Made by a program: the position numbers and the translations under genes. From a bacterium (GTDB lineage Bacteria; Hydrothermota; Tepidihabitantia; Tepidihabitantales; Tepidihabitantaceae), in contig JBAMLV010000008.1 of NCBI GenBank assembly GCA_039793395.1, forward strand, positions 10,196 through 74,195: 64,000 nt of DNA, written 5' to 3'. Shown piece after piece: positions 5,639-43,055 of this stretch. A model generated the notes under the pieces. The model searched no databases. It was not told the DNA's origin and saw nothing but the letters and a program-made list of their open reading frames with translations. Positions within the stretch are counted from its first letter, which is position 1. Every line of letters starts with the position of its first letter.

Positions 5639-5710
5639 TTTTAACTCTGGTAATGCCTGGTGGCAACATTGACCAGTGGTTGCGGTGTCGGCATTGAGGT
5701 GCTGATTGGC

Positions 5711-8978: not shown

Positions 8979-10630
8979 CCGGAAGGCTTTTCACCCTGAC
9001 CCTGCTGCTCATCTTCCCGGCTTCGGGGCAGGATGTGAACCGGGCACAACTGTTAGAACAGGCAGGCCAGATTGAAACCGCCTTTAAAATCTATCTTGAG
9101 GCACTCAAGCAAAACCCGAACCAGACCACAGCACTCAGCGGTCTGGTCCGCACTGCCCGGCGCCTCGGTCGCGATGACACCCTGCTGGTTGTCTTAGAAT
9201 CACTGAAAGACCTTGCCCGTAACCCGGTGGCAATTGAACTGGGAATTGTTGAAGCCCTCTTTGGGCTGAAGCGCCGGTCCGAAGCCATCCGGCGACTGGA
9301 GCAGGTGCTGCGTGTTCATCCCGACCAGCTGGCGCCGGCGATTGACATGCTGCTCCGGGCTGGAGAATTGAACCTTGCCATCCGCTATCTTGAACCGGTG
9401 GTCAATACCCGGTTCAGTCCCGACCTTGTTGACCGGCTGGTTAACCTTTACGAACAGACCGGACAGCTAACTGCAGCTGCCCGCCTGATTGTCCGTTGCG
9501 CCAATAATAACGGTGCTGATGCGGTCCGCTTTCTCACCCGCTCAACTGAACGGCTGCGCTCCTGGGGCAGGCAGTCCGGTGCCGAGCGGGTCGTCTCTGA
9601 ACTGGAAAAAATCCAGGACCCGGGACTGCGCCGTCGTCTGCAGGCACAGGTGCTACTTGGTGCTGGCCGGGAACTGGCTGGCGCCCGACTGTTAGTGGAT
9701 GCCGCTCAAGCCCGAACGGTCTCCCAGCAGGAACTGCTCCAGTTTGCCCGGGAATGTGAGGCGAATGGTTTTTATCAGGCTGCCCTGGCCGGTTATCAAT
9801 TTCTGAACCTCAACTCCGATGTCGCCCGAATCCTGCGCCTTCAGGGAAAAATTGACCTGGCATTGAAGGTGTTAGAATCGGACACCACCCCCGCAGGACT
9901 GTTTGAATATGCGGAACTGGCACGGCTTGACCGGAACGACTTCGCCCGTGCCACTACTGCCTATTCCCGGTTCCTCCGGTTCCGTCCCCTTGACCCGGCC
10001 GGGATTTCCGGCCTGGCTGCCGCCCTGATCGGACTCAAGCAATTGGACAGTGCCCGACGGGTGCTCAACCGGCTCCAGCCCTCTGATGACCGCGCCACCC
10101 TGCTGCTGACCAAGATTTTTATCTATCAGGGAATGTTTGATTCGGCTATTGCCTTGATCCGCAACTTCACCACCCGGTTCCCGGACAGTCCGTTGGGTAA
10201 TGATATTTTAGAGTTGGGGTTACTGATGATGCTCGGCGAACGGAAACAGGAACTTGCCCGGGTGATGTTCAATCTTGACGCCGCTCAGTTTGACCGGGCG
10301 CGGCTTGAGGCCGAAAGTCTGGCATCGGGCAATGACCTGGTCGCGCAGCAGGCACTACTACTGCTCAGTGAAATTTATCGCCGGCAACGCCGGTATCAGT
10401 CCGCAGTCGCGGAACTGGACACCCTGCTGGTCCGTTTCCCTGAAGGCGAACTGGCACCAGCCGCCCTTTACCGTCAGGCAGAACTATTTTACGATGAACT
10501 TAAAGACCTGGACCGTGCCCGGCGCTGTGCTGAAAGGCTGATTGAGCAGTTTCCAGGCTCACCCTTTGCCCCGCTGGTCCGCAACCGTCTGCTCAATCAC
10601 CACCCCGCACCGGCCGAACCGGTGCGCTGA
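8975..10630 (+). CDS. Secreted TPR-repeat protein
   Basis: Signal peptide MTGRLFTLTLLLIFPASGQD. Multiple TPR-like helical repeats. C-terminal YbgF-like TPR (YRRQRRYQSAVAELDTLLVRFPEGELAPAALYRQAELFYD). Confidence 0.6.
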   Translation: MTGRLFTLTLLLIFPASGQDVNRAQLLEQAGQIETAFKIYLEALKQNPNQTTALSGLVRTARRLGRDDTLLVVLESLKDLARNPVAIELGIVEALFGLKRRSEAIRRLEQVLRVHPDQLAPAIDMLLRAGELNLAIRYLEPVVNTRFSPDLVDRLVNLYEQTGQLTAAARLIVRCANNNGADAVRFLTRSTERLRSWGRQSGAERVVSELEKIQDPGLRRRLQAQVLLGAGRELAGARLLVDAAQARTVSQQELLQFARECEANGFYQAALAGYQFLNLNSDVARILRLQGKIDLALKVLESDTTPAGLFEYAELARLDRNDFARATTAYSRFLRFRPLDPAGISGLAAALIGLKQLDSARRVLNRLQPSDDRATLLLTKIFIYQGMFDSAIALIRNFTTRFPDSPLGNDILELGLLMMLGERKQELARVMFNLDAAQFDRARLEAESLASGNDLVAQQALLLLSEIYRRQRRYQSAVAELDTLLVRFPEGELAPAALYRQAELFYDELKDLDRARRCAERLIEQFPGSPFAPLVRNRLLNHHPAPAEPVR

Positions 10631-10643
10631 ACTGACCGCGTTA

Positions 10644-10746
10644 GATTGCCGTGCGGCGTGCGGAGCGAAGCCCGGGCGTGGAGATTGCTTCGTCGCTCGC
10701 GCCCCTCGCAATGACGGGTTAACAAAGCAAGGCTCGCAATAAAGGG
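10644..10746. repeat. Copy or copies of the dispersed palindromic GC-rich repeat (core GAGATTGCTTCGTCGCTCGCGCCCCTCGCAATGACGGG)
   Basis: Shares the GATTGCTTCG...CTCGCAATGAC core with at least 7 other loci. Generates the spurious ORF 10542..10742. Confidence 0.7.
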
Positions 10747-10799: not shown

Positions 10800-12011
10800 A
10801 TGGCACAGGCTCAGACGCTTGCCGACCTGCTCGCACAACGCCGCATCCTCTCGGTAAATGAAGTGGTACCGCTGTTCAGTTCGGTGTTGGAAGACTTAGA
10901 AAAGGCACATACCCAGGGCCAGCTCCACGGCGACATCAAGCCGAAGAAAATCGTTCAGGTTGAAGACCGGGTCTGGCGGCTGATTGACTACGGCGGATCA
11001 AAAATCGGCACCGCCCGCTACCTCGCCCCGGAAAAGGCAAAAAAGGAGCCAGTTGATGGCCGGGCTGACCTCTATTCCCTGGGAGTGGTGCTTTACGAAG
11101 CCGTGACCGGCAGGCCACCATTTGAAGCCGAACTGGGTGCGCAACTGTTGCAGGCACACATCAGTCAGCCGCCACCACCACCCAGTTCAATTCGTCCGGA
11201 AATTCCCAAAGAACTGGAACGGCTGATTCTCCGGGCATTGGAAAAGGATCCGGCACGCCGGTTTCAGAGTGCCCGCGAATTCCGGACCGCGCTCAATGCG
11301 CTCCTGCCCAGGGAACCAGCGCCCGAAGCGGCCAAACCGGTTAAACCCCAACCCCAGCCACCCCCTGCACCCGAACCGGTCCGGCCAGCAGGTCCTAAAC
11401 CGATGGCACCGCCCCGACCCGCCTCCGAACCAGCAGTACCGGCAAAAAAAGGCAGAGCACCGGTGATGCTCATTATTATAATATTTGTGCTTGCCGCTGC
11501 GACCGCAGGTTTTTTAGTGCTGAGTAATGCCGGCAGGGTGGTGGTGCCCGGCGTGGTCGGGATGTTTGAGTCCGACGCCCGGCAGAGTCTGGAAAAAACG
11601 GGTCTGGTAATTGAACTCGGTCCGGACCGCGATGCGCCCCTGCCAATGGGTGCGATCGCCGAACAGCATCCCCAGCCCGGGGCAAAGGTCAAAAGGGGCA
11701 CTAAGGTGCAGGTGCGGTTGAGCACTGGTATGGTTGAAGTTCCGGGTTTAACCGGCCGTTCCCGAACCGAAGCCGAGCAAATGTTGCGTGCGACCGGTCT
11801 GGATAGTATAATATTTACCAGTGAATACAGTGATGAAATTGAATTCGGCCGGGTTATCGGCACCGAGCCGAAAGCGGGCGCCAGAGTCCGGATCCGAACA
11901 CCAGTCCGGGTGCGAATCGCCAATGGCCTGGCAACCTGTCCCCAGTGCGGTGCCAGAAGGGAGCCGGGAGCCCAGTTCTGCACCCGCTGCGGTTTTCGGT
12001 TTCCGCAATAG
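10800..12011 (+). CDS. N-terminally truncated PknB-like Ser/Thr kinase (C-lobe only) - TM - 2x PASTA - C-terminal zinc ribbon
   Basis: Begins in kinase subdomain VIa (LHGDIKPKK = HRD region; DYG = DFG; ARYLAPE = APE motif). No Gly-loop or VAIK lysine N-lobe. Pro-rich linker, TM (VMLIIIIFVLAAATAGFLVL), two PASTA-like domains, CPQCGARREPGAQFCTRCGFRF zinc ribbon. Confidence 0.65.
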   Translation: MAQAQTLADLLAQRRILSVNEVVPLFSSVLEDLEKAHTQGQLHGDIKPKKIVQVEDRVWRLIDYGGSKIGTARYLAPEKAKKEPVDGRADLYSLGVVLYEAVTGRPPFEAELGAQLLQAHISQPPPPPSSIRPEIPKELERLILRALEKDPARRFQSAREFRTALNALLPREPAPEAAKPVKPQPQPPPAPEPVRPAGPKPMAPPRPASEPAVPAKKGRAPVMLIIIIFVLAAATAGFLVLSNAGRVVVPGVVGMFESDARQSLEKTGLVIELGPDRDAPLPMGAIAEQHPQPGAKVKRGTKVQVRLSTGMVEVPGLTGRSRTEAEQMLRATGLDSIIFTSEYSDEIEFGRVIGTEPKAGARVRIRTPVRVRIANGLATCPQCGARREPGAQFCTRCGFRFPQ

Positions 12012-16043: not shown

Positions 16044-16076
16044 TGACCCGCAGGTGCCTGGTTGGTATGCTCAAAT
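16044..16076 (+). promoter_or_regulatory. Sigma-70-like promoter, TTGACC -16- TATGCT, 5 nt before ATG at 16077
   Basis: ttgacc (16044-16049), tatgct (16066-16071), caaat, ATG 16077. Confidence 0.5.
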
Positions 16077-17462
16077 ATGACTGCTGAAATCCCTACCCGG
16101 CTCCAGCATCTGGGACGGGTCTATGAGCAGCTGCTCGAGGTCCGAGGCAACCGAGCCTGTTATCTGGTCGGTGGCGCGCTGCGGGATATTCTGCTCAACC
16201 GCGAGCCCCATGATTTTGACTTTGCTGTTGCCGGTTCCGGTATTGAGTTTGCCCGGGAGTTTGCCCGGCGCATTCGGGGAAAATTAGTAGTTCTGTCGGA
16301 ATCAGATGATGAAGCCCGGGTGGTGTATCGGAAAAAAGTTATATTGGACTTTAACGGCATTGGCTCCGGGCCGATTGATTTGGACCTGCGCCGCCGGGAC
16401 TTCACCATTAATGCCCTTGCCTGGGAACTGCCTGATGGCGGCGCGCTGATTGACCGTTTCCGGGGTATGGAAGACTTAAAAAATAGAATTATCCGCCCGG
16501 TTACTCAGGATTCGCTAGCTCAGGACCCCCTGCGCCTGCTCAGAGCCTTCCGACTTGCCGGCGAACTGGGATTTACTGTTGCTGAGGAGGTTGAAGTGCA
16601 GGGACAAAGGCTCTCGCTTGCCCGAACCGCACCGGAACGGATTGGTATGGAGTTCATTCGCATTCTTGAGGCACCGTCCGGAACGAGGTTTGTGGAAAAA
16701 CTCGCCACCATGGGCAGGCTCGGGGAAATGATACCCGAACTGGCTCCCCTGCTTGAGGACGAGGAACTTTTTCAGCATACGCTGCGCACCTGCTACAAAA
16801 TTGAAGAACTCCTGACCGACCCCGGGTTTTTTGCCCGATTTGGCCCAGAATGGGACAGCTACTTCCAGAGCCAACCCTGGCGCCGGGCGCTGTTAAAACT
16901 TGCCGGCTTACTCCACGATATTGCGAAACCCCATACCCGGTTCATTAACGAAAGCGGCGAAACCCATTTTTACGGCCATGACAGTCTCGGTGCCCGGCTG
17001 GTGGTCAAAATCGGTTATGAACGGCTGCGCCTTTCCCGGCTTCAGGTGCGGATGGTGCGCACCCTGGTTAAGGAACATATGCGCCTGCATCTGCTCGCCA
17101 CTGCCCCGGAATTGTCAGACCGGGCAATCCGGCGCTACTTCCGGGACCTCGGCACCGAAGCCTTCGGCTTGATGCTTCTGTGTTATGCTGACGGCTGGGC
17201 AACTGCTGGCCGAACTGTTCATCTTGAGCACACCATCACCCGAATGCTCAATCAACACCGTGCCGAAGCCGCCAAAAAAAGGATTAAACGGCTGGTCACT
17301 GGCAATGACCTGATCGCCCTGGGAATGAAACCGGGTCCGGTATTTAAGGTGATACTTCAGGAGCTTGAAGACCTGCAAGTGGAGGGTAAAATCACCAGCC
17401 GGGAAGAGGGGATTGAGTATTTAAAAACCTATCTGCTGCCGGAACTGAAGAAAACGGAATGA
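16077..17462 (+). CDS. cca: CCA-adding tRNA nucleotidyltransferase (polyA-polymerase head + HD domain)
   Basis: GGALRDILLNREPHDFDFAV head-domain motif. HD domain (LLHDIAKP...YGHD). The track ORF starts at TTG 16062, but ATG 16077 follows the promoter. Confidence 0.8.
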   Translation: MTAEIPTRLQHLGRVYEQLLEVRGNRACYLVGGALRDILLNREPHDFDFAVAGSGIEFAREFARRIRGKLVVLSESDDEARVVYRKKVILDFNGIGSGPIDLDLRRRDFTINALAWELPDGGALIDRFRGMEDLKNRIIRPVTQDSLAQDPLRLLRAFRLAGELGFTVAEEVEVQGQRLSLARTAPERIGMEFIRILEAPSGTRFVEKLATMGRLGEMIPELAPLLEDEELFQHTLRTCYKIEELLTDPGFFARFGPEWDSYFQSQPWRRALLKLAGLLHDIAKPHTRFINESGETHFYGHDSLGARLVVKIGYERLRLSRLQVRMVRTLVKEHMRLHLLATAPELSDRAIRRYFRDLGTEAFGLMLLCYADGWATAGRTVHLEHTITRMLNQHRAEAAKKRIKRLVTGNDLIALGMKPGPVFKVILQELEDLQVEGKITSREEGIEYLKTYLLPELKKTE

Positions 17463-20400
17463 AAAATAGTAAAAAGGTATCCCTTTTCGTACTGGCACTG
17501 CTCCTTTTACCTTACTTGGTGAATGCGGGCATACTGGTTCAGACATTTGAATTTGAACCCGCGGCAGTAAAATTAACCTCCACCGGACCACACACACTCA
17601 TCACCATTGACGGTGCTGAATTTAACAGTCCACCGGGTACACCACTGCTGCCGAAAGTCGGCAGGTTTGTCCGCCTGCCAGCGCACACCAGCGCCACCGG
17701 AATTGAAATTTTATCAGTGGAGTTTGAAACCCTGCCCGGTACCGCGATGCTACCGGTTGCCCAGCCGCCCGTACCCTTGTCCCTGACACCACCGCCAGCG
17801 GTGGACCTCAAACCCGAACTTGCGCGGCTTAATAACTTTTATCCGGAAACGCTCTGCGCAATTGCCGGCCAGGGTGAACTCAGAAATGACCATCTGCTCG
17901 CACTGCTTATCAGCCCGGTTCAGTATCTGCCCACCACCCATCAGGTCCGCGTTGCCACCCGCATCAAAGTCGCCATCAGTCTTGAAAAACAGGCGTCCAG
18001 GCATCTGCAGTATGCCGATTCCGGACCGATGAACTATCTGCTCATCACCAGCCAGGAACTGGATAGCGTATTCAGGGAACTGGCAACCTGGCGCACCTTG
18101 ACCGGTCTGCCAGCCGCACTGCGTCATATTGAATGGATAGTCGGCACCTTTCCGGGTGCCGATGCTGCCGAAAAACTGCGGAATTATCTTCAACTCTGTG
18201 CCCGGGATTCCGGACTGCAATACCTTCTGCTTGCCGGTGATACTGACATCATCCCGGGCCGGAAAGCTTTTGCCTTTGCCAGCGGTGCGGGGCTCCATCC
18301 GCGCGAAGATTCACTCCCCTGTGACCTGTATTATTCGGACCTGGACGGCACCTGGGATGCAAACGGCAATCACATTTACGGTGAACCTGACGATTCGGTT
18401 GACCTTTTCCCGGACATCTTTGTCGGCCGGGTTCCGGTCCGCACCCGGGAGCAGGCGCGGGCGTTCGTGACTAAACTCCTGACCTATGAGCGCAACCTGC
18501 TCAACGACTATCAGCACCGGGCACTTCTTTCCGCCGCCATCCTCTGGACCGACCCCTGGACCGACGAAATGCACGCCAAGGAAAAAATCCGGGATAATAT
18601 GCCACCGCGGTTCCAGGTCCGAACCCTTTATGAATCACAGATGCCAATCACGGTAGATACCGCAATCGCCCTTCTGAACGCCGGCTGCGGACTGTTTAAT
18701 CATTGCGGCCATGGCTGGATTGATGCCCTGGCACTCAGCCGCCAGACGGTGCTGCGCAATTCCTTAATTGACCAGTTGACCAACCGCCGCCGCCCGGGAA
18801 TCACCTACTCCATCGGCTGCTGGACTGCAGCGTTTGATTTTGACTGTATCGGAGAGCACTTTCTATTGAACCCGGACGGCGGCGGAGTCGCCTATATTGG
18901 CAATTCTTCTTATGGCTGGGGCGCACCGGGCAATCCTGGCTTCGGCTATTCTGACCGGTTTGACCGGCGCTTTTTTGAACTGCTCTTCTCAACCCCGGCA
19001 CCCCGCATCGGCGCCTTACTTGCCCAGACCAAAACCCATTTCATCCCTTTCAGTTTTCAGCCCAATGTTTACCGCTGGCATCAGTTCTGCCTCAACCTGC
19101 TCGGCGACCCGGCAATGCCAGTCCATACCGACACCCTCAGTCCGCTCTATCTGCACAAACCGCTACGCCTGCCCTCTGCGGCAAGCAGTGTGAAAATGGT
19201 GGTTCTTGACCCTGCCGGAGCGGTTAACCAGGCAACGGTAACCCTTACTGCCCCGGACTGCCCGCCCCTGACCGCCACTTCGGCACCGGATGGCACCGTA
19301 ACTTTTGAACTTCCCCGCGCACTGCTGGGAACCGCCTATCTGACGGTCACCGCTCCTAACCACCGCCCGCTCACCGATTCCATTCCGGTTCAGCCAGACC
19401 AGAAAATCACCATTGTCAGTTATCAGTTGATTGACTCCACCGGCGACGCCAACGGCTATATCTCTGCCGGTGAAACCTTCACCATTCGTCTTTACATAAA
19501 GAACATCAGTCCAAGCCCGCTCTATTCTATCCGTGTCCGGCTGGCCACCGAATCACCGCTCCTGACGATTGAGCAGGACTTCGGGTTCATACCGGTCCTG
19601 CCGCCGGAAACCATCATCCCGGTCCGACTGTTTCTGGTCCGCACCGCCCCTGACGCTCTAAACGGCAGTTGCGCCCTGTGCACCATAACCATCACCGACT
19701 CAACCGGCGTATTCAATCAGTTCCCGCTCAATATCCAGTTTTCCCAGCCGGTGCTGAAAATCATCGGTTATAATCTCATTTCCCCGCCAATATCACCGGA
19801 CACCTGCGCCTTGTTCCTGAAAATCACCAATACCGGCCTGACACCCGCACCACCGTCCACCGGAACGGTCTTTAATCCAGATTGGAATCAGAAACTGACA
19901 CTGATTACTCCGGGCATCATCCTGCCGCCGGTTTCTCCGGCAGAAACGGTCTGGTCTTTGGTGCCATGCCGGTTTACTGCCCGGACCGACCCGCTCCGCC
20001 TGGGTATTAATCTGGTCAGCGGCAGGTTTGCTTTCAGCGATACGCTCACCATCAATCTCAGAACTGAGCAACTGTTTAACAACTTTGACTCCGGCCCCGG
20101 GAACTGGTCTATATCCGGTGCTAACGGCTCCTGGTTTTTGACCGCTGAACGGTATTATTCTCCCCGGTTCTCCATTCACGCCGGCAACCCGGATGCCGGT
20201 TATCCGCCGAACTGCACCTGTCTGCTGCTCTCCCCGGAATTCAAACTGCCAAACCGGGCGGTATTAAGTTTTTTGGGCTCATTTGAACTGCCAACCTATG
20301 GAACCGATGGCATTTACTGCCTAATCATTACCCCGGACCGGGAGGAAACTCTTGATTTTATTGGTGCTGGCGGCGCGCTCAAGGAAAAAGGCAGGTTAAG

Positions 20401-20869
20401 CCCTACCGGTAGTCTAAAATGGGTTAAATTCTCCTATGACCTCTCTTTTCTTGAACCCGGAGCACCGGTGCGGTTGAAGTTTGTGTTTGTCTCCGATTCT
20501 CAACCAGAAAGTGCTGCTGGCTTTTATCTGGACGATATTCAGGTGCAGACTGGTGATTCCGCTTGGTCTCAACTGCCGGAAACCACCCGGCTGCTCGGGA
20601 GTTTTCCCAATCCGTTTGGAACCCGCACCACCATCTTTTTTGCCCTTGCCACCCCCGGATTTGTAAAACTTTCGGTTTACACCAGTGCTGGCAGTTTAAT
20701 CCGCACGCTAATTGCCGAAAACATTGCCCCGGGCTACCATTCTCTCGCCTGGGACGGCACCACTGAAACCGGCACCAGGGTTCCAGCGGGCGTCTATTTT
20801 CTCCAACTTGAAGCCGGACATCTGCCGCCGGGACGGGTCCACCGGAAAATAATTAAAGCCGGGCGGTAA
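17459..20869 (+). CDS. Peptidase C25 (gingipain-like cysteine protease) with T9SS C-terminal sorting domain
   Basis: Signal peptide. YLLLAGDTDIIPGR, LPCDLYYSDLDG, catalytic-like NHCGHGW and YSIGCWTAAFD. C-terminus FPNPFGTRTTIFFALATPGFVKLSVYTSAGSLIRTLIAENIAPGYHSLAWDGTTETGTRVPAGVYFLQLEAG (Por/T9SS CTD). ATGA overlap with the cca stop. Confidence 0.75.
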   Translation: MKNSKKVSLFVLALLLLPYLVNAGILVQTFEFEPAAVKLTSTGPHTLITIDGAEFNSPPGTPLLPKVGRFVRLPAHTSATGIEILSVEFETLPGTAMLPVAQPPVPLSLTPPPAVDLKPELARLNNFYPETLCAIAGQGELRNDHLLALLISPVQYLPTTHQVRVATRIKVAISLEKQASRHLQYADSGPMNYLLITSQELDSVFRELATWRTLTGLPAALRHIEWIVGTFPGADAAEKLRNYLQLCARDSGLQYLLLAGDTDIIPGRKAFAFASGAGLHPREDSLPCDLYYSDLDGTWDANGNHIYGEPDDSVDLFPDIFVGRVPVRTREQARAFVTKLLTYERNLLNDYQHRALLSAAILWTDPWTDEMHAKEKIRDNMPPRFQVRTLYESQMPITVDTAIALLNAGCGLFNHCGHGWIDALALSRQTVLRNSLIDQLTNRRRPGITYSIGCWTAAFDFDCIGEHFLLNPDGGGVAYIGNSSYGWGAPGNPGFGYSDRFDRRFFELLFSTPAPRIGALLAQTKTHFIPFSFQPNVYRWHQFCLNLLGDPAMPVHTDTLSPLYLHKPLRLPSAASSVKMVVLDPAGAVNQATVTLTAPDCPPLTATSAPDGTVTFELPRALLGTAYLTVTAPNHRPLTDSIPVQPDQKITIVSYQLIDSTGDANGYISAGETFTIRLYIKNISPSPLYSIRVRLATESPLLTIEQDFGFIPVLPPETIIPVRLFLVRTAPDALNGSCALCTITITDSTGVFNQFPLNIQFSQPVLKIIGYNLISPPISPDTCALFLKITNTGLTPAPPSTGTVFNPDWNQKLTLITPGIILPPVSPAETVWSLVPCRFTARTDPLRLGINLVSGRFAFSDTLTINLRTEQLFNNFDSGPGNWSISGANGSWFLTAERYYSPRFSIHAGNPDAGYPPNCTCLLLSPEFKLPNRAVLSFLGSFELPTYGTDGIYCLIITPDREETLDFIGAGGALKEKGRLSPTGSLKWVKFSYDLSFLEPGAPVRLKFVFVSDSQPESAAGFYLDDIQVQTGDSAWSQLPETTRLLGSFPNPFGTRTTIFFALATPGFVKLSVYTSAGSLIRTLIAENIAPGYHSLAWDGTTETGTRVPAGVYFLQLEAGHLPPGRVHRKIIKAGR

Positions 20870-20870
20870 A

Positions 20871-21794
20871 ATGACACCCGACTTTGTCTATGGACCGGTC
20901 CCTTCCCGACGGCTGGGCTTATCTCTCGGCATCAATCTCATTCCTGAAAAAACCTGCAGTTTCAATTGCATTTACTGCCAGTGCGGCCGGACCACCAGAC
21001 TGACCATCAAACGGCAATCCTGGTTCCCGGTTCAGGAGATAATTAACCAGGTCCGTTCAGCAGTTGCCGGTAAAAAGGTTGACTACCTCACCCTTTCCGG
21101 GGCTGGTGAACCCACGCTGAATCTGGACCTCGGCAAAATTATCAGACTGCTGAAAAGGGAGTTCAGCATACCGGTGGCGGTAATCACCAACTCTTCACTC
21201 CTGACCGAACCCGAAGTCCGCCGCGCACTCTATCATGCGGACCTAATTGTCCCGACACTTGCCGCTGTTGACCCGCGGGTGTTCAAAAGGCTTCATCGCG
21301 CCCACCCCCACCTGTCAATTGAAAAAATCATCCAGGGGTTGAAGATTTTCCGCACACATTATCAGGGCAAAATCTGGATTGAAGTGATGCTCGTCAAGGG
21401 GATTAATGATTCACCCGCACATCTTGCCCGGCTGCGCCAGGTGATTTACCACCTGCAGCCCGACCTGGTGCATCTGAACACCGTGGTCAGGCCACCGGCT
21501 GAAAATTATGCCCGCGCCCTTCCGTTTGATGACCTGGTCCAGATTCAGTTACTATTCGGACCCGGAACCGAAATCGTCCCACCACCGCCAAAACCGGCAC
21601 AAAAGGACTTCCGCGGCAATCCGGAGCAGGCGGTTCTGGCGGTTATCCACAACCGACCGGTAACTGAGACCGACCTGAATCAGGCGTTAGGTATTCCGCA
21701 CCAAACCCTCAGATTAACCATTACCCGGCTCCTGCGCGCAGGCAAAATTACAAAAACAAAATTTCAGGGAAAAATCTTTTACCAGCCTGCCTGA
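20871..21794 (+). CDS. Radical SAM protein
   Basis: CSFNCIYCQCG (CxxxCxxC) near the N-terminus. Starts 1 nt after the peptidase stop. Confidence 0.65.
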   Translation: MTPDFVYGPVPSRRLGLSLGINLIPEKTCSFNCIYCQCGRTTRLTIKRQSWFPVQEIINQVRSAVAGKKVDYLTLSGAGEPTLNLDLGKIIRLLKREFSIPVAVITNSSLLTEPEVRRALYHADLIVPTLAAVDPRVFKRLHRAHPHLSIEKIIQGLKIFRTHYQGKIWIEVMLVKGINDSPAHLARLRQVIYHLQPDLVHLNTVVRPPAENYARALPFDDLVQIQLLFGPGTEIVPPPPKPAQKDFRGNPEQAVLAVIHNRPVTETDLNQALGIPHQTLRLTITRLLRAGKITKTKFQGKIFYQPA

Positions 21795-21825: not shown

Positions 21826-21872
21826 ATAAAACCCGCCTGCGTTAAGACAGGCGGGCTCATTTTCGCCTTAAC
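21826..21872. terminator. Bidirectional rho-independent terminator
   Basis: aaacCCGCCTGcgttaagaCAGGCGGGctcattttcgcc: 8-bp GC stem with a T-run on the plus strand and, on the reverse strand, a T-run from the preceding aaaataaaa. Sits between convergent genes 20871..21794 and 22152..27494. Confidence 0.7.
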
Positions 21873-22151
21873 CGCCTTTTACTTCCCAGGCGGAGCCGGC
21901 TTCGGCGGCGGTAAAATCGGTACAATCGGACCGTCCATTTTATGCCTCCTTTAATTTATGCTCAACTGCCATCACCTGATAATAAAGCAATTTAGGTGCC
22001 GGTTCAACCCCCTTTATTTAACTGCCTGAAAATCATTATGTTAATGCCCAGTTAGACCATTTTTTAAAAATTCTGGATAAAGCAATCTGTCGCACCAGAG
22101 ATGCAAATTTTGATAACTACTTGAAAAATTGTGTCTTATAAAATTGGGGTT

Positions 22152-25100
22152 TTATATTCCGGTGTTATCCGGCTTCATCGGGTTTATTTTGTAGCGTTTG
22201 ATAAGCCGCTGGACCTGACGCCGGTGTGTAGCCAGCAGGTTGGCAGCCTGGCTGATATTGCCCCGGGTCTGTTCCAGCGCCTGGACTATTTGCTCTCTGG
22301 TTAACCTCCGGCGCTGGTTTGGTTGCTCATTAAGCGTCTGCTTTAATTGAATAAATGGCTCGCCCAGGTCCTGAATTGTAATCTTCGGGTTCTGGGTTAC
22401 TATCACCGCCCGCTCAATTGTATTCTGCAGCTCCCGGACATTGCCGGGCCAGTGATACTGAGTTAATATTTCGTTGACATCGCTCTCAAAGCCCTGAACC
22501 TCTTTGTTTAACTGCTGGGCATAGTTGCGCAGGAAGTAGTTTGCCAGCGGTATTATATCCTGAACCCTTTCCCGGAGCGGCGGAACCCTTATGCTCACTA
22601 CATTGACGCGGTAGAACAGGTCCTCCCGGAACCTGCCGGCTTTGACTTCAGCCATCAGGTCCTTATTGGTGGCACAGATGAGCCGGACATCAACCAGCCG
22701 GGATTCGGTATCGCCCAGCCGGCGGATAATTTTTTCCTCCAGCACCTGAAGCAGTTTTGCCTGAATTGCCAGGGTGGTATTGGTGATTTCGTCAAGAAAG
22801 ATGGTGCCGCCGTTGGCGATTTCAAACAGTCCTGCCTTGTCCCGGACCGCACCGGTAAAGGCACCGCGCAGATGGCCAAAGAGTTCAGACTCAAATAGCG
22901 TTTCTGGCAGGGTGCCGCAGTTGACCGCTACAAATTTATTATCCTTTCGGCCGCTGCGCTGATGGATCAGCCGGGCGATCACCCCCTTACCCGCACCGGT
23001 TTCACCGGTCAAAAGCACGGTGCAGTCGGTTGGGGCGATTTTATTAATAAACCGCAGCACATCGCGCATCGCCCGGGACCGACCAAGAAAAAGTCCGGTC
23101 TGGGGGTCAACCGCCAGGTCCTCACCTTCGGACCTGAACTCCTGGCGCCACTGCTGATAAACCCGGCATTTTTCAATTGTTGCTGCCAGCAGGTGCCCGA
23201 CCGACTGCAACAGATTACGGTCCTCCTCAGTAAACAGGTGGGTGGTCACCCGGGAATCAAGGTAGATTGTGCCGATCACCCGGTCTTCAATCACCAGCGG
23301 CACACACAGCAGTGAGCGGATTTTATTCAGAACCACACTGTGGGCAGAATTGAATCGCGGGTCAAACAGGGCATCGGCGCTGACCAGCGGTTCACGCCGG
23401 CGTCGTGCCCGGCGCAGGACCGAATGCGAAATTGCTTCCGCATCCACAACGGTAGAATGCTCAACATCACGCGCCGCCACTGGCACCAGCCGGTCGCGCT
23501 GAAACAGAAAGATAATTCCCCGCTCTGCCCTGGTGACCGAAAGCACCAGCCCCAGCACCTGTTCTAAAAAATCATCCCGGTCAATACCGGTGTTTACCAG
23601 CTCACTCAACTGATAAAAGACCTTCAGGTATTCATTCCGTTCCCGGGCTTTCAGCCGGATAATACCGAACACCTGCTCCAGACGGTCAAGGGTCCGCTCG
23701 CTCCGCTCAGCTTCAAGATCGTTTCCCAGCAGTTTGAAAATTGAAACCGCCTCCTGGAGATTTGCCCGCACCCATTCATACCGCTCGCCCGGAATGGTCT
23801 GAAAATCCTGGGGCAGGGGCAGTCCCTCTCCCCCGAACAGGTCGGCAGTTGCCAGCAGGCTGAGCCCGAGTTCATATTTTGCACCCAGCCGGCGCAGGAT
23901 TTCAACACTTTCCTGAAAGAGTGCCACTGCCGGTTCCTTTTTCCCGGCCGCACAACGGCACTGTGCCATTAGCCGGAGCGCCTGGGCATATTCTATTGTC
24001 CCTGGTTTCTCCTTGAATACCGCCAGCGCCCGCTCGGCTTCAAAATTAGCCCGGGTTCGGGTCGCCAGCCGGTAGTTGCCAGCAGTCAACCAGGCCCGAC
24101 CGCGCAATCCTGGATACTGGCAGTTCCGAACAGCGCTGATTGCCTGAATTAAATAGCCCTTCACCCGCTCAAACCTCTCTGCCCGCAACTCCATTTTTAC
24201 CTGAATCAAAGAAATGAAAAATTCAACTTCCGGGTCCTGGTGGCTGGCAACGGTCTCCTGCACCTCACGCAGGCAGTGCTCGGCACTGGTCAAATCTCCC
24301 ATTACTGAATATAACTCTGCCCGCATCAGCCCCAATCTTGCCCGGCTCGCCGCTGAGATCCGCCTGCCGGCATATTCGGTAATTTTACCCGCCTGCTCAA
24401 AACATTCCTTTGCCCGATTCCACTCTCCCCGGTCAAAACTGATATTTCCCAAAAGCAGGATGAGATAAAAAGCATCAATTTCACTGCCAATCTGTTCTGC
24501 CAGACCCAGGGCTTCGCTGAATAACCGCTCCGCCTCCTGCCACTCCCCCTGCTCATAACTTATCAATCCGAGCCCGTGATAAGAGGACAGCAGGTAGTAC
24601 ACATCACCAGCCCGGCGCTGGGTTCGCACCGCATCCTCATAACACCGCCGTGCCTTATCAACCTCGCCCCGGCGCAGCCAGAGTGTGGCAAGAAACTGAT
24701 TCAGCAGGGAAATCATAACCTGCTCGTCAATGGCCCGGAAGACATCAAGGCTTTTCTCTGCCAGTTGCCGCGCCAGGACAAAATCGGCTCTTGCCTGTGC
24801 CAGCACCGCAAAATAGTAAAGCACCAGCCCGACCAGCCGGTTCGCCTCCCGGGGAAATTCACCCCGCAGTCGCTCCGCTTTCCGGATTGCCCGGGTCAGA
24901 TACTCCTCAGCCTGATTCAGGTTCCCGCAGGAACAGTGGCACCATCCGAGGTCTGCAAGCAGTCGCGCACACTCAATCGTCTCGCGGTCCTGCCCCAGTG
25001 CCAGCGCCTGGTTAAAAGCCGCCAGCGCCTCGCCAGTGTTGCCAAGCTTCTGCTGCACCAGACCCAGGCGCCGGAGAAACCGTGCCAGCAGCACCCGCTC

Positions 25101-27494
25101 TCCGCCCGGAGCGGGCTGTGCCACCACCAGGCTCATCCCCTGACGATAAATGTCAATCGCCTCCCTCAGACCACCGGTCGCCTCACGCAACTCGCCCACC
25201 CGCTCAATCAAACCCAGCCGTTCACTTACCGGCACATAATCCGGTGCCAGTGCCAGTGCACTCTCATAAAACTGCCGTGCCTCATTAAACAGCAACCATT
25301 CCCGTGCCCTTTCCCCGGCCTGAACCGAATACCGGTATGCCCGTTCGCGGTCCCCGCTCTGAATCCACTGATGTGCCAGTTCAAATACCAGTCGCTCCTG
25401 CTCACCGCCGAATGACAGCTCCATTGCCAGTGCAATCCGGCGATGAATCTCCCGGCGCCGTTCCGGTGGAATCCGCTCGGTAACTGTGGTCTCAAGAATT
25501 TTGCTGGCAAGGACGAGCGCCGGCTTTACCTGCCCGGTCTCATTATTCCGCTGATAAAATGGCTTCAGGAACCCACCGGCTTTCAGCCGGCTTACCGCCT
25601 GAAACAGCGGCCGGTCCTGGAGATTGAGCACCGCGCGCAGAAACTCAACGGTAAACGGTCCGGCAACCAGCGCCCCGACCTCAAGCACACTCAACTCATC
25701 GGGCAGCAAATCCTCAAGCCGGCGCCGCACCACATCCCTTACACTTCTCGGAATGGCAAGCACACTCAACTCATCCCGGGCAAACTGCCAGTCCAGCCCC
25801 TGCCGGCGCAGCACCCCCTGCTCCACCAGCGCATATACCATTTCAATCGTGGTCAGCGGATTACCGCCGCCAAAATCATATATCCAGGTCACCAGGTCAT
25901 CAAGCCCGTTAACCTCACCAACCATTGAAACCACCATCTGCCGCACCTCATCCCGATTCAGCACCCCCACCTCAAAATGGCGGCAGTGCGGCCGTTCGGT
26001 CAATACCGCAATCAGGTCGGTAAACCGTTTCTCATTCAACCCGGAAATCAAAAGCAGAATCCGCTCCTTTTTCAGACCCAGTGCCAGATAGCGCACAAAT
26101 TCCAGGCTCAGCGGGTCAAACAGTTCAAAATCGTCCACCAGCAGAACCAGACTGTGTGTCAGCCGGTGGGACTCGGCAAGCCCCTTCAGCCGCCGCACCA
26201 ACTGCTCAAACAGCCGGAACTTTGACTGCTCAAACGCACCTAAATCCAGCGCCTCCTCAACATCGGTTCCGGCTTTCAACACGCCGATCAGCAACTCCAC
26301 CAGCGACTGCGACCGTGCGCCCAGTGCTACCGGCTCAAAAGCCAAAACGGTTGCCCCTTCCAGCTGGGCAAAAAACTTAACCTCGGCAAGACACCTACTC
26401 TTACCCGCACCCCGCTCACCCGAAATCAGCGCCACGCCGGGAATCCCCCGGGCGGCATCAGCCACCATCCGCTTCAACTCATCAACTATCTCCTTCCTGC
26501 CGACAAAACCCGGTGCCAGCAGGTCCTTGCGTGCGGAAACCGCTGCCTCGGCTCCGCCGACCGCAGCCATTGCCGTCTCTGCTTGCGGGTCAATTGTTTC
26601 TGCCATAACCGGAGAACCGCCTCCCCGGAACTTATCCAGTGGCATCAGTTCTGCCAGGACCAGTTCGGCAATCAGCGCCCGGGCACTCCGGGGACGGCGC
26701 TCCCGCTCCTGGCTTATCATCCGCATCACAATACTTTCCAGCGCCTCCGGCACCTCCGGATTGAACCGGCGGACCGGCTCAAACCCGGAAACATACTGGC
26801 GCTTCAGCCACTCCTCAAGCTGCATCCCGTCCCCGGGTCCCCGGCCGGTTAAAACCTCATACAAAACCAGCCCCAGTGAATACAGATCGCTTCTCCCATC
26901 CGCCTCCCAACCCTTCAACACCTCGGGCGCAACATAACCCAGAGTTCCGCGCCTCCGGTTAAACTGTAATCCTAAATTATTGCCCCCCAGTTCAACTCCT
27001 GGCAACCCTTCGGCAAACCCCAGGTCCAGCAACTTCACCCGCACTTTATCCTCATCCTCATAAACCAGAATATTGGACGGTTTAACATCACAATGAACCA
27101 GCCCCTCCCGGTGAATCGCATCCAGCGCCCAGAGCACCTCCACCAGCGCATTTACCAGTTTCGGTGACCAGCCGGCAAAAAACCTCCGCAGCTCAACCCC
27201 GGGCACAAACTCCATTGTAAAAAATGGCCTGCCATCCCGGCTCAAGCCGTAATCAAAAACCTTGACGATATTCGGATGGGACAACTGGGACAGATAAAAA
27301 AACTCCCGGCTCAGCAACAGACCATCATCTGCGGAACTGTTTTTCAGCAATATTTTTAACGCCAGGATGCGCTGGTTGGTCCGATCCCTGACCCGGTAAA
27401 CCTCGGTGAGCTCGGTCCTGCCGATTAAGTTGAGGATTTCATACCTTTCACTTACCCGGCTGTTAAAACCGGCCTCATCCTTTCCTAACCCCAT
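22152..27494 (-). CDS. 1,780-aa multidomain regulator: Ser/Thr protein kinase + STAND/AAA_16 P-loop NTPase + TPR-like array + GAF + sigma-54 interaction (AAA+) domain + Fis-type HTH
   Basis: Kinase: ALKIL, HCDVKPSNILV, DLGFAEG, GYVAPE. P-loop ISGERGAGKS (around aa 358). About 800 aa of TPR-like repeats. GAF-like segment. Sigma-54 module: GETGAGKG Walker A, FLDEI Walker B, GHLRGAFTGA (GAFTGA). C-terminal HTH RGNISQAANLLATHRRQVQRLIKRY. Confidence 0.8.
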   Translation of the reverse strand: MGLGKDEAGFNSRVSERYEILNLIGRTELTEVYRVRDRTNQRILALKILLKNSSADDGLLLSREFFYLSQLSHPNIVKVFDYGLSRDGRPFFTMEFVPGVELRRFFAGWSPKLVNALVEVLWALDAIHREGLVHCDVKPSNILVYEDEDKVRVKLLDLGFAEGLPGVELGGNNLGLQFNRRRGTLGYVAPEVLKGWEADGRSDLYSLGLVLYEVLTGRGPGDGMQLEEWLKRQYVSGFEPVRRFNPEVPEALESIVMRMISQERERRPRSARALIAELVLAELMPLDKFRGGGSPVMAETIDPQAETAMAAVGGAEAAVSARKDLLAPGFVGRKEIVDELKRMVADAARGIPGVALISGERGAGKSRCLAEVKFFAQLEGATVLAFEPVALGARSQSLVELLIGVLKAGTDVEEALDLGAFEQSKFRLFEQLVRRLKGLAESHRLTHSLVLLVDDFELFDPLSLEFVRYLALGLKKERILLLISGLNEKRFTDLIAVLTERPHCRHFEVGVLNRDEVRQMVVSMVGEVNGLDDLVTWIYDFGGGNPLTTIEMVYALVEQGVLRRQGLDWQFARDELSVLAIPRSVRDVVRRRLEDLLPDELSVLEVGALVAGPFTVEFLRAVLNLQDRPLFQAVSRLKAGGFLKPFYQRNNETGQVKPALVLASKILETTVTERIPPERRREIHRRIALAMELSFGGEQERLVFELAHQWIQSGDRERAYRYSVQAGERAREWLLFNEARQFYESALALAPDYVPVSERLGLIERVGELREATGGLREAIDIYRQGMSLVVAQPAPGGERVLLARFLRRLGLVQQKLGNTGEALAAFNQALALGQDRETIECARLLADLGWCHCSCGNLNQAEEYLTRAIRKAERLRGEFPREANRLVGLVLYYFAVLAQARADFVLARQLAEKSLDVFRAIDEQVMISLLNQFLATLWLRRGEVDKARRCYEDAVRTQRRAGDVYYLLSSYHGLGLISYEQGEWQEAERLFSEALGLAEQIGSEIDAFYLILLLGNISFDRGEWNRAKECFEQAGKITEYAGRRISAASRARLGLMRAELYSVMGDLTSAEHCLREVQETVASHQDPEVEFFISLIQVKMELRAERFERVKGYLIQAISAVRNCQYPGLRGRAWLTAGNYRLATRTRANFEAERALAVFKEKPGTIEYAQALRLMAQCRCAAGKKEPAVALFQESVEILRRLGAKYELGLSLLATADLFGGEGLPLPQDFQTIPGERYEWVRANLQEAVSIFKLLGNDLEAERSERTLDRLEQVFGIIRLKARERNEYLKVFYQLSELVNTGIDRDDFLEQVLGLVLSVTRAERGIIFLFQRDRLVPVAARDVEHSTVVDAEAISHSVLRRARRRREPLVSADALFDPRFNSAHSVVLNKIRSLLCVPLVIEDRVIGTIYLDSRVTTHLFTEEDRNLLQSVGHLLAATIEKCRVYQQWRQEFRSEGEDLAVDPQTGLFLGRSRAMRDVLRFINKIAPTDCTVLLTGETGAGKGVIARLIHQRSGRKDNKFVAVNCGTLPETLFESELFGHLRGAFTGAVRDKAGLFEIANGGTIFLDEITNTTLAIQAKLLQVLEEKIIRRLGDTESRLVDVRLICATNKDLMAEVKAGRFREDLFYRVNVVSIRVPPLRERVQDIIPLANYFLRNYAQQLNKEVQGFESDVNEILTQYHWPGNVRELQNTIERAVIVTQNPKITIQDLGEPFIQLKQTLNEQPNQRRRLTREQIVQALEQTRGNISQAANLLATHRRQVQRLIKRYKINPMKPDNTGI

Positions 27495-27926
27495 CGCTCG
27501 TTATTATATCAACCGTCTGCTCCCTGTCAATATCTGCGCCACCAGTCCAATCATCTCCCAAGCAGACCGTCTTCGCCCCGGCGCCAAACCCCGAACTACA
27601 CTAAAAACCCTGCGCACCATTACCCTCAAATCGCTCATCCCGGTCAATACCACCACTACCGCTCCTGTTCTGCCTGCCGCCATTGCCCATTTCACCACCA
27701 GCACCCGCACCTGAACCCCGGCCCGCACAAACCTGAAAACCTCCTGCCCGACCGAACCCGGAACCCGGGTCAAAACCCCGGCCCCAACTCTGAACCGGTC
27801 GGTCCCCCAGACCGTCCCCGGGACAGGCACGGGAAAAAGGACCGAATCTGACAACTGATTAAAATTTAATGTCTTATGAGCATAAGTGCTATACGGCGCA
27901 ACCGGTCCAGCCCGAACAAAAGATGA

Positions 27927-27960
27927 TTGACACATCCGCAGCAGTTTTTATAATCAATTT
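27927..27960 (+). promoter_or_regulatory. Sigma-70 consensus promoter, TTGACA -16- TATAAT, 6 nt before the smpB GTG
   Basis: ttgaca (27927-27932), tataat (27949-27954), caattt, GTG 27961. Confidence 0.55.
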
Positions 27961-40750: not shown

Positions 40751-40767
40751 TTTAACTATTCAGCCGC

Positions 40768-41346
40768 CTATTCGTACCAGGCTTTGGTGCTTTTCTTTTT
40801 CAACTCCTGCTCATCCGCCCAGACAATCTCCGAGGTCCGCACATCCACCAGCCGCATCGTCAGTTTGTAATAGGCAAGGGTGGTTGCCCCTCTGGTCTTC
40901 TCAATGCTCATCACATCACCGGTTAAAAAGTAGTCGGCACCAATCAGACTGCCCAATTTCACCGCCCCCTCAACATCAATCCGCTGTGTCTCCTGCAGGG
41001 CAATCTCCTTTGCCTGCTGCTTCAACAGCTCCCGGTCTACCATCCGGAATTTCCCTAATTTCAGCAACGCAACCATAATCTTCTCGGCAATCCCCTCGGT
41101 ATCAATGTGCTGGGAGGTCCGGTTACCGATGGCAAGAAACGCCAGCACCGGCCTGCCGGTATCGGACCGGGGTGGCAGTTTGAACTCGGCAAGGGACATT
41201 ACCATCTTCTCGGCGAGCAGTTTCATATCGGTATCCGAATAGGTGTAGTCCCATTCGGTTACCTCATCTGGCCGGACATAATGGGATGTTGAACAGCCCG
41301 GCATCAGCACCAGTCCCAGGGTGGCAATGTAATTCAACAGTTTCAT
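40768..41346 (-). CDS. LpoB/CsgG-like (TolB-N-like fold) lipoprotein, paralog 1
   Basis: Lipobox LMPGCS. VLAFLAIGNRTS...KIMVALLKLGKFRMVDRELLKQQAKEIALQETQRIDVEGAVKLGSLIGADYFLTGDV matches the CsgG/LpoB family consensus. Confidence 0.55.
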   Translation of the reverse strand: MKLLNYIATLGLVLMPGCSTSHYVRPDEVTEWDYTYSDTDMKLLAEKMVMSLAEFKLPPRSDTGRPVLAFLAIGNRTSQHIDTEGIAEKIMVALLKLGKFRMVDRELLKQQAKEIALQETQRIDVEGAVKLGSLIGADYFLTGDVMSIEKTRGATTLAYYKLTMRLVDVRTSEIVWADEQELKKKSTKAWYE

Positions 41347-41882: not shown

Positions 41883-41891
41883 CTCCTGTTT

Positions 41892-43046: not shown

Positions 43047-43055
43047 CCTGCGCTC

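Follow-up and report, generated by a model that had tools for sequence, protein, structure and literature searches.

The 64-kb window analysed here (64,000 nucleotides of contig JBAMLV010000008.1, assembly GCA_039793395.1) carries on its minus strand, at 22152-27494, a gene for a 1780-residue regulator, which is followed on the same strand by a gene for a 19-residue proline-rich peptide. Our best reading is that the regulator is a cytoplasmic single-chain signalling hub, in which a PknK/MalT-like STAND kinase is fused to a complete NifA-like enhancer-binding protein (EBP); the adjoining peptide gene is probably its direct target, via sigma-54. Its components are already known separately, i.e. 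STAND kinases (PknK), STAND transcription factors (MalT), GAF-containing EBPs (NifA), kinase-GAF-output fusions and the receptor-peptide pairs of the RRNPP type. What is new is a STAND kinase that has a complete sigma-54 activator as its effector end, together with a dedicated micropeptide as its likely target, and there is some chance that the pair represents a new type of peptide signalling system.

Domain architecture of the regulator

Each of the modules that a first-pass annotation had named from motifs is placed by Pfam above its curated cut-off, including both the kinase and the sigma-54 AAA+ module (the profile searches covered the best 25 of 39 matching Pfam families and the best 25 of 53 matching NCBIfam families; conservation was judged on an alignment of 70 homologues). 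The Hanks-type Ser/Thr kinase domain (residues 18-273; 26676-27443, on the minus strand like all of the domains below) matches Pkinase (PF00069) with 127.6 bits against a cut-off of 31.7 (E = 7.6e-37) and has K47, E64, H134-C-D136, K138, N141, D157-L-G and A189-P-E. Residues K47, E64, H134/D136/K138, D157/G159, T184/P190/E191, D203 and R267 are invariant or at least 90% conserved. The earlier description of this kinase as apparently intact holds with respect to the ALKIL, HCD, DLG and APE motifs and the Pfam match, but not with respect to the Gly-rich loop, in which G25-R-T-E-L-T (GRTELT) stands in place of GxGxxG. The catalytic loop, HCD, is of the non-RD type, and the sequence of the activation loop has no Ser or Thr except the structural T184. 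In the closest clade the Gly-rich loop reads G[KR][ST]E and in the wider family GGGExT, only the Latescibacterota branch having a canonical GTGGMG. Given the degenerate loop and the non-RD type, kinase activity is likely but not certain.

The kinase is followed by a STAND nucleotide-binding oligomerisation domain (NOD; residues about 330-675; 25470-26507), assigned from Pfam, conservation, an AlphaFold2 model and Foldseek, which includes helical and winged-helix subdomains. AAA_16 matches at residues 330-476 (65.9 bits against 32.6, E = 7.9e-18); in the Walker A motif, GERGAGKS, G359, G362, G364 and K365 are invariant, and in the Walker B motif, LVLLVDD, D455 is at least 90% conserved. The NOD leads into a sensor array of tetratricopeptide repeats (TPR; residues about 677-1221; 23832-25466; about 26 helices), identified from TPR_12, TPR_MalT and the AlphaFold2 model; Pfam matches to TPR_12, TPR_1, TPR_2 and TPR_MalT extend over residues about 800-1214, TPR_MalT being above its cut-off. 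The model (residues 299-1290; 58 homologues; predicted local distance difference test score, pLDDT, 88.1; predicted template modelling score, pTM, 0.72) has a five-stranded P-loop domain, a helical domain, winged-helix hairpins and the TPR-type helices. The STAND reading is supported by the fold beyond the motifs, because the top Foldseek match in the PDB is 6mfv, a 'STAND protein with TPR' (E = 3.8e-13), domain III of MalT (1hz4) superposes on the model with a template modelling score of 0.78 and a root-mean-square deviation of 4.0, and Apaf-1 (3shf) is also matched. The PknK/MalT-like layout proposed at first pass is supported by both Pfam and predicted structure. When the STAND-TPR part is searched against the PDB by sequence, only weak TPR matches are returned, the best being NprR-type receptors (5dbk and 4gpk, E about 2e-4). 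ADP/ATP switching and multimerisation of the NOD are presumed by analogy with MalT.

Two long linker helices in the model connect the TPR array with a GAF domain (residues 1305-1441; 23172-23582; PF01590, PF13185 and PF13492), which Pfam GAF matches at residues 1305-1440 with E = 1.1e-15. The sigma-54 AAA+ domain with its lid (residues 1470-1721; 22332-23087) consists of a match to Sigma54_activat (PF00158; residues 1470-1635; 230.5 bits, E = 1.2e-68) and one to AAA_lid_14 (residues 1641-1721), and by PDB sequence search the C-terminal part matches NtrC1 (4l4u, E = 1.1e-79). It is complete, as had been claimed: GETGAGKG, GAFTGA, FLDEI, FREDLFYR and PGNVREL are all present, GAFTGA or GSFTGA occurs in 66 of the 70 homologues, and the Walker A and B motifs, Arg fingers and sensor II are also conserved. 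At the C terminus lies a Fis-type helix-turn-helix (HTH) DNA-binding domain (residues 1733-1768; 22191-22298), which matches HTH_8 (PF02954) with 29 bits against a cut-off of 22. There is no GerE/LuxR match, and hence no LuxR-type HTH, among the best 25 of 39 Pfam families, in which HTH_8 and HTH_28 are the only HTH families and cover the same C-terminal stretch. Over their full length, through the GAF, AAA+ and HTH domains, the C-terminal 490 residues can be aligned with NifA; identity as NifA itself was considered and rejected (TIGR01817, 353.9 bits against a cut-off of 528.85). Among the best 25 of the 53 NCBIfam families no equivalog reaches its cut-off, and the protein is not NifA, NorR or another named regulator. 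All of the modules look functional, in that their motifs are conserved across the 70 homologues, and the proposal that a kinase and STAND oligomerisation are joined on one chain to sigma-54 activation, with no histidine kinase, appears reasonable.

Integrity and distribution of the gene

The ORF list and the translation give one open reading frame (ORF) of 1780 codons, from ATG to stop, at exactly 22152-27494 of the minus strand, in agreement with the first-pass annotation. An assembly artefact, i.e. a chimeric join or a frameshift correction that merged the gene of a PknK-like kinase with that of a distinct NifA-like activator, might be suspected, given that the window derives from a metagenome-assembled genome (MAG) and that Anaerolineae have kinase-STAND-TPR proteins without the EBP part (L017, L021, L024 and L025). 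However, an identical protein is on record from NCBI MAG GCA_049700775.1; locus L002 has an intact, fully syntenic orthologue (67% identity); and further intact co-linear relatives are found at 52% and 47% identity. Numerous assemblies made independently (NCBI, ENA, JGI and Logan) contain co-linear full-length homologues that are 28-67% identical, the co-linear architecture of 1600-1940 residues being present in more than 100 protein clusters from these sources, and closed Latescibacterota chromosomes carry family members, with at least two paralogues per genome. Moreover, the junction region, i.e. the linker helices to the GAF domain, is conserved and modelled at high confidence. The independent homologues and the syntenic orthologue rule out a chimera or frameshift of the window ORF; an artefact is effectively refuted, and we assign it next to no probability. 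Some other family genes are interrupted: those of L008 (about 10234-10339) and L020 are co-linear but for a frameshift in the TPR region, and in L016 an internal deletion takes out the TPR array and part of the GAF domain. These interruptions are either assembly errors or signs of decaying paralogues.

A homologue search of a collection of 5.8 billion proteins returned 1150 matches at E <= 1e-10. The architecture is less rare than the first-pass annotation had implied: among the 120 clusters (90% identity) listed, all but 4 carry both Pkinase and Sigma54_activat, and most members have 1600-1940 residues. Among species-representative genomes, the full architecture is found in WOR-3 (now phylum Caldifarciminota) and Latescibacterota, and Anaerolineae have the kinase-STAND-TPR part without the activator. 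The family genes are usually annotated as 'sigma 54-interacting transcriptional regulator' or 'tetratricopeptide repeat protein', and the adjoining peptide genes are left uncalled.

A sigma-54 promoter and a micropeptide gene adjoin the regulator gene

Scanning of the flanks of family members for -24/-12 elements revealed that most loci have such an element shortly past the stop codon of the regulator gene and on the same strand. In the window it is CGGCAC-ctaaa-TTGCT (21986-22001, minus strand), which lies 151 nt after the regulator stop and before the micropeptide gene. The first-pass annotation saw no convincing -24/-12 element in the window and supposed that the target promoters were elsewhere; the first statement is overturned, and the second left unsupported, by this conserved promoter and the boxes upstream of it, which lie just beyond the coordinates of the ORF that was then under study. 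Window-wide, matches to the sigma-54 consensus are not above chance (45 versus 39 expected), and so it is by position and conservation only that the site at 22001-21986 is singled out. No rpoN gene was found within the 64-kb window; the conserved GAFTGA motif and -24/-12 elements imply that sigma-54 is present in the genome.

Conserved boxes are located 20-125 nt upstream of the -24/-12 element. A distal AT-rich box, TTTTCAAGTAGTTA (22114-22127, minus strand), a candidate enhancer or architectural site that forms a conserved block in an alignment of six loci, is repeated directly, at a spacing of exactly 95 nt, as a proximal AT-rich box, TTTTCAGGCAGTTA (22019-22032, minus strand); the window has five matches to this box versus 0.61 expected. 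The sequence GGTGCGACA (22088-22096, minus strand) is a candidate enhancer (upstream activating sequence) half-site for the HTH domain. Related loci have 1-6 copies of TGCGAC/GTCGCA upstream of the promoter, where these boxes occur at 4.24 per kb as compared with 0.59 per kb in whole loci, an enrichment of about 7-fold. In the six-locus alignment TGCGAC, GGCA...TGC, AAAGGAGG and ATGGA.GG are invariant amid otherwise diverged intergenic DNA. With respect to other regulon members in the window, none were apparent: the additional AT-rich box matches at 44888 and 61433 have no -24/-12 element nearby, and GGTGCGACA has no other exact copy in the window.

The micro-ORF, MDGPIVPILPPPKPAPPGK (21879-21938, minus strand; ATG at 21938, stop at 21881-21879), encodes 19 residues and begins 213 nt past the stop codon of the receptor gene, an adjacency that is conserved. 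The invariant AAAGGAGG (21945-21952, minus strand) is its Shine-Dalgarno sequence, 6 nt before the ATG, and an intrinsic terminator with a 12-bp stem and a T-run, identified by a terminator scan (21829-21858, minus strand), is shared bidirectionally with a convergent radical S-adenosylmethionine (radical-SAM) gene; the terminator hairpin is also present in the orthologous loci. The proline-rich product reads DGPIVPILPPPKPAPPGK. In every WOR-3-type locus for which downstream DNA is included, an orthologous micro-ORF comes after the regulator gene, encoding MDGPMVPILPPPRPAPPMN in L002, MDGIVPILPPPRPAPPMK in L003, MGTPFPIPPMPLPITPPPY in L004, MDGPIIPILPPPRPAPPMD in L007, MDGWVPILPPPLPAPPPVE in L008, MDNTGFPIPPMPGPISPPF in L010, MDGIPILPRPRPVIPPPR in L011, MDGPFAPIYPPPIPAPPTA in L132 and MPVFGIPIPPRPGPVAPPVR in L133. 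Overall, a sigma-54 promoter and a Pro-rich peptide ORF on the same strand follow the regulator gene in the window, in these nine loci, and in L122, L134, L087 and L088.

Within the PILPPPxPAPP core, 9 of the 10 invariant residues display synonymous codon changes and none a replacement, a pattern that indicates selection on the peptide rather than on the RNA. The pairing was also recovered in the reverse direction: a metagenome-wide scan for the coding pattern of the core gave 40 matches, 35 of which lie in Pro-rich stretches inside long ORFs, whereas five are MD[GA]...PILPPP.PAPP micro-ORFs, and all four of those for which upstream sequence is available are located 250-270 nt past a family EBP/HTH. 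No curated Pfam or NCBIfam family exists for these peptides, and a Hap4-motif match on the peptide repeats was rejected as a low-complexity artefact. Because the pairing of regulator and peptide genes is kept while other neighbours change, and because the cis-module between them is conserved, we read the peptide gene as a probable direct target of the regulator.

The placement of the promoter was assessed by a binomial test against the background rate in the 500 nt downstream of the regulator gene in 21 non-redundant loci, in which 12 loci have an element with at most one mismatch (P = 3e-15) and 15 have one with at most two (P = 5e-13), although these P-values overstate independence, the loci being phylogenetically related (the clades span 28-100% protein identity). 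This is one of several points that weigh against our interpretation. The window promoter begins with CGG rather than TGG, the matches in L004, L010, L134 and L087 are weaker, in the distant relative L090 the peptide is preceded by a sigma-70-like promoter, and the Zixibacteria relative L091 shows no peptide gene. The presence of sigma-54 here rests on conservation of GAFTGA and of the -24/-12 elements, and the TGCGAC and AT-rich boxes each remain candidate enhancers. With respect to the N-terminal part, the degenerate GRTELT loop may mean that in this clade the kinase is a poor binder of ATP or serves as a scaffold.

Peptide genes of more distant relatives

The family members at greater distance place different peptide genes at the equivalent position. 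In L087 (41% identity) the product of an ORF at 10292-10711 has a hydrophobic signal-like leader and, after it, six tandem DGIIIPPRPKPGPSW units, and in L134 (42% identity) the ORF at 8371-8721 encodes a similar leader and five tandem DGIVIPPKPGPPR units. Both precursors thus look secreted and have tandem units of the form DGI(I/V)IPP(R/K)P.PGP..., and both of their genes are downstream of the regulator and preceded by 4-6 TGCGAC/GTCGCA boxes. In L088 (37% identity) an exact consensus promoter precedes a leader and EIPSPPQPLPPPW. In light of the tandem units, the window micro-ORF is, judged from sequence, Met followed by a single copy of a unit that in other species appears to be produced in the form of a secreted, multi-copy precursor. 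When the L087 precursor was used as the query of a database-wide protein search, no matches were obtained. Public annotation calls the L134 precursor ORF only in part.

In Latescibacterota the equivalent position has a sigma-54 promoter (TGGCACGGwwCTTGCA), a Cys/Asp-rich peptide of 56-64 residues that ends ...VPPLPFPDDDD.WDDFDQ, and a SPASM radical-SAM enzyme related to QhpD, SCIFF and PapB, i.e. to thioether-forming peptide maturases. Paralogous cassettes of this kind occur at least twice per chromosome (L015, L016, L019, L020, L022, L023, L048 and L006); between cassettes the maturases are 90-93% identical, but the peptides only 52-73%, and the regulators are diverged.

Proposed mechanism and alternative interpretations

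The mechanism that we propose takes that of MalT from Escherichia coli as its template: STAND proteins are closed in their ADP form, and binding of an inducer at the sensor leads to opening, nucleotide exchange and multimerisation (PMC4381067). By analogy, a ligand, probably a peptide or protein, would bind to the TPR sensor of the window regulator and open the NOD, such that ADP would be exchanged for ATP and the protein would multimerise. In activators of the NifA/NorR type, GAF domains gate the AAA+ ring. Multimerisation, together with the state of the GAF domain, would then enable the C-terminal AAA+ modules to form an active ring on the TGCGAC and/or AT-rich boxes, which would remodel the sigma-54 holoenzyme at 22001-21986, with the result that the peptide is made. 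The same oligomerisation may switch on the non-RD kinase, as a second output towards other substrates or as autoregulation directed at the regulator itself. We infer the binding of DNA at the upstream boxes, the order of events and any kinase substrate.

A possible, though tentative, extension of this scheme is that the circuit is autoinducing, the proline-rich peptide or an exported or processed form of it being the ligand of the TPR sensor, as in RRNPP systems. This would be a new type of peptide autoinduction, in which a STAND/TPR receptor senses the peptide that it activates through sigma-54, with the Hanks kinase as a parallel output; on present evidence we doubt it somewhat more than we believe it. 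A TPR receptor gene directly before a small peptide gene with a strong ribosome-binding site is the RRNPP signature (PMC10075063), leaderless peptide signals have precedent (PMC10518010), and the best, if weak, PDB sequence matches of the TPR region are the NprR-type receptors. The products of L087, L134 and L088 have Sec-type signal-like segments, followed by 5-6 tandem units in the first two and by a single Pro-rich core in the third, and so resemble a secreted and processed signal precursor; moreover, a peptide that switched on its own gene would create positive feedback of the kind found in quorum sensing. On the other hand, a signal peptide is lacking in the window peptide (its 12-residue hydropathy peaks at 0.58), the window shows neither an exporter nor an oligopeptide importer, and the binding of the peptide to the TPR array is putative, being proposed by analogy; the ligand could instead bind to the GAF domain, or be unrelated to the peptide. 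Were autoinduction to be correct, RRNPP-like logic would have been invented independently in Gram-negative uncultivated phyla (WOR-3/Caldifarciminota and Latescibacterota), in variants that span leaderless 19-mers, secreted multi-copy precursors and radical-SAM-modified peptides.

The combination of a STAND NTPase, a TPR sensor and a non-RD kinase would also fit an inducible effector or defence module, in which the STAND-TPR part senses an invader or stress protein in an Avs-like manner and the sigma-54 output is a proline-rich, possibly ribosome-targeting, effector peptide. The peptides have 18-20 residues and are rich in Pro, Arg and Lys (e.g. MDGIPILPRPRPVIPPPR in L011), and may resemble proline-rich antimicrobial peptides of the oncocin/apidaecin type; in Latescibacterota, L006 is flanked by TIR, ThsB-TIR and Schlafen-like genes. 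We nevertheless consider this interpretation unlikely, since the WOR-3 gene lies in stable housekeeping surroundings (smpB, an amidase gene, rluD, glmS and the gene for a CCA-adding enzyme) that are syntenic across genera, and since the secreted multi-copy precursors of relatives are ill-suited to an intracellular suicide peptide. PADLOC matches exist, but at the level of generic domains only: among the best 25 of 38 families, alignments are confined to the kinase (PD-T4-6, mad6, MkoA and PglW) or to the AAA+-HTH part (RtcR-like), and no Avs or other complete defence-system model is matched. Quite improbable, too, is the view that the transcript next to the regulator gene represents a small RNA dependent on sigma-54, or that a different activator serves it, with both micro-ORF and adjacency being incidental. 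Although ORFs of 19 codons are easily spurious and the predicted 150-nt transcript folds better than shuffled sequences (z = -3.29), the terminator hairpin supplies most of this folding signal. A small RNA would account neither for the ideal spacing of the invariant AAAGGAGG from the ATG nor for the exclusively synonymous variation at 9 of 10 invariant residues, and the peptide unit is recognisable in very different nucleotide contexts, including as repeats in secreted proteins of 116 and 139 residues. Other EBPs could in principle act at a sigma-54 promoter, but the adjacency holds in both the forward and the reverse tests. Direct activation of the peptide gene by the adjoining regulator is therefore the interpretation that we prefer.

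Relationship to known systems

The N-terminal part of the regulator shares with MalT and PknK the same NOD (P-loop nucleotide-binding, helical and winged-helix domains), a TPR-like sensor and terminal effectors; in PknK of Mycobacterium tuberculosis the effector is, as here, an N-terminal Hanks kinase. In contrast with both, the window regulator has no LuxR-type HTH, its C terminus being formed by the GAF, sigma-54 AAA+ and HTH_8 domains, and it combines two different oligomerising NTPases on one chain; its predicted output is enhancer-dependent sigma-54 transcription rather than recruitment of sigma-70. With respect to GAF-containing EBPs of the NifA/FhlA/NorR type, the C-terminal part keeps all of the sigma-54 activator motifs of NifA, and in the window, likewise, a candidate upstream enhancer and a -24/-12 promoter adjoin the gene; however, a kinase-STAND-TPR extension of 1290 residues precedes the GAF domain, and the probable target is a 19-codon peptide gene rather than a metabolic operon. 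The cyanobacterial HstK family also has an N-terminal Ser/Thr kinase, followed by GAF sensory domains and a C-terminal signalling output, and swapping of the output is documented in that family, e.g. replacement of the histidine kinase by an adenylate cyclase (PMC2853384). The window protein differs from HstK in that its output is a sigma-54 activator with a DNA-binding domain and in that it adds a full STAND NOD and a long TPR array.

The RRNPP and leaderless pairs (Rap/Phr, NprR/NprX, PlcR/PapR, Rgg/SHP and RopB/LCP) resemble the window pair in that a cytoplasmic TPR regulator adjoins a small peptide gene with a strong ribosome-binding site, and in that the window regulator contains a DNA-binding domain and is likely to control its neighbour (criteria in PMC10075063; leaderless peptides in PMC10518010). 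The differences are these: the window receptor has 1780 residues rather than 250-500, belongs to the STAND class and would act through sigma-54; its relatives are from WOR-3/Caldifarciminota and Latescibacterota and not from Firmicutes; the window peptide has no Sec signal; and peptide-receptor binding is putative. By receptor size and phylogeny the pair falls outside the RRNPP family; as to secretion, the window peptide has no hydrophobic signal sequence, and the peptides of the distant loci L087, L134 and L088 have clear hydrophobic signal-like segments at the N terminus. Ranthipeptide/SCIFF clusters, a class of ribosomally synthesised and post-translationally modified peptide (RiPP), share with the Latescibacterota branch a precursor peptide and a SPASM radical-SAM enzyme, whereas the peptides of the window and of WOR-3 have 18-20 residues, no Cys and no adjacent SPASM maturase. 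A precursor gene next to a SPASM radical-SAM gene, as in a RiPP cluster, is found only in the Latescibacterota relatives.

In Myxococcus xanthus, FHA-domain EBPs are linked in trans to Ser/Thr kinases via the phospho-Thr-binding FHA domain. Ser/Thr phosphosignalling is there tied to sigma-54 activators, as it would be in the window regulator, but the window kinase is covalently part of the EBP, which has no FHA domain. The myxobacterial kinome paper of Perez et al. (2008) reportedly may mention kinase/sigma-54 fusions. A paper on the FHA-domain EBPs is cited in PMC12288465. In the literature other than some subscription papers on myxobacterial kinomes, we found no description of a kinase-STAND-EBP fusion or of its peptide partner.

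If the proposed model holds, a STAND NOD, a sigma-54 AAA+ ring and a eukaryote-like kinase are joined in one polypeptide, and the licensing of EBP ring assembly by upstream sensory domains becomes testable in a compact two-gene system. The adjacent conserved target provides a defined promoter, candidate enhancer boxes and a tiny product, which most orphan EBPs lack. The forms of the peptide partner hint at peptide signalling in candidate phyla for which, to our knowledge, no communication system is known, and the sensor, promoter and peptide could serve as orthogonal parts in synthetic biology.

Genomic neighbourhood and regulator promoter

The regulator-peptide pair is constant while its other neighbours vary, those downstream being, depending on the locus, a radical-SAM and C25 peptidase cluster, smpB or unrelated genes. 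In the window, a cluster at 16062-21794 (plus strand), comprising genes for a CCA-adding enzyme, a C25 (gingipain-like) peptidase with FlgD_ig and a 307-residue radical-SAM protein, converges on the peptide gene and shares its bidirectional terminator. This cluster was considered as a functional partner and rejected, as it is conserved in one WOR-3 subclade only and is probably plain synteny. The convergent radical-SAM gene (20871-21794) was likewise rejected as a peptide maturase: it lies on the other strand, L004, L010, L011, L132 and L133 do not have it, and its product is generic rather than SPASM-type (MoaA 41.7 against a cut-off of 284, with no SPASM family reaching its cut-off). The Latescibacterota cassette of L006 is flanked, at 4587-6314 and 16196-17339, by Schlafen/AlbA-like, TIR_2 and ThsB-TIR genes and a transposase gene, a defence-island-like setting not seen in the WOR-3 loci. 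In L088 (9261-10265) and L090 (2539-3915) the giant regulator is accompanied, no more than a few kb away, by the gene of a second, ordinary sigma-54 activator, which in one case is a domain-minimal AAA+-HTH protein and in the other is of the receiver (REC) type.

Elsewhere in the window, ORFs of 1078 and 422 residues (5742-8978 and 48137-49405, both plus strand) have no Pfam match at E <= 1e-4. A long G-rich leader region precedes a lipoprotein/secretion-like operon at 39572-44590 (minus strand), which encodes CsgG-like, FlgT_N, LpoB and TPR proteins and two proteins without Pfam matches. At 45487-45502 (plus strand) an exact TGGCAC-N5-TTGC, likewise overlooked at first pass, lies inside a plausible ORF for a 137-residue hydrophobic/membrane protein (45174-45587), 190 nt upstream of an endonuclease III-like gene and with no TGCGAC box nearby. 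The 403-residue PASTA-domain 'kinase' encoded at 10800-12011 (plus strand) begins in the C-lobe, with HGD, DYG and APE present and no upstream room for an N-lobe, Gly-loop or VAIK lysine. Either the protein is a half-kinase/pseudokinase, or there is a local assembly problem.

With respect to expression of the regulator gene itself, a promoter scan and the sequence give a sigma-70-type promoter with a perfect match and a TG element (TTGACA-16-TATAAT, 12/12; 27503-27530, minus strand). A publicly annotated gene for 89 residues (27504-27773, minus strand) ends 9 nt upstream of the regulator ATG; it has no Pfam match on record and no called counterpart in L002, overlaps the sigma-70 promoter, lies in a G-rich stretch, and is probably spurious. 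Since the promoter ends 8 nt before the ATG, the regulator mRNA is probably leaderless or has a very short leader. A second 12/12 sigma-70 promoter (TTGACA-16-TATAAT; 27927-27954, plus strand) diverges from it and precedes smpB. Both of these perfect promoters end 6-8 nt before their start codons, which suggests that leaderless or near-leaderless mRNAs are used in this organism.

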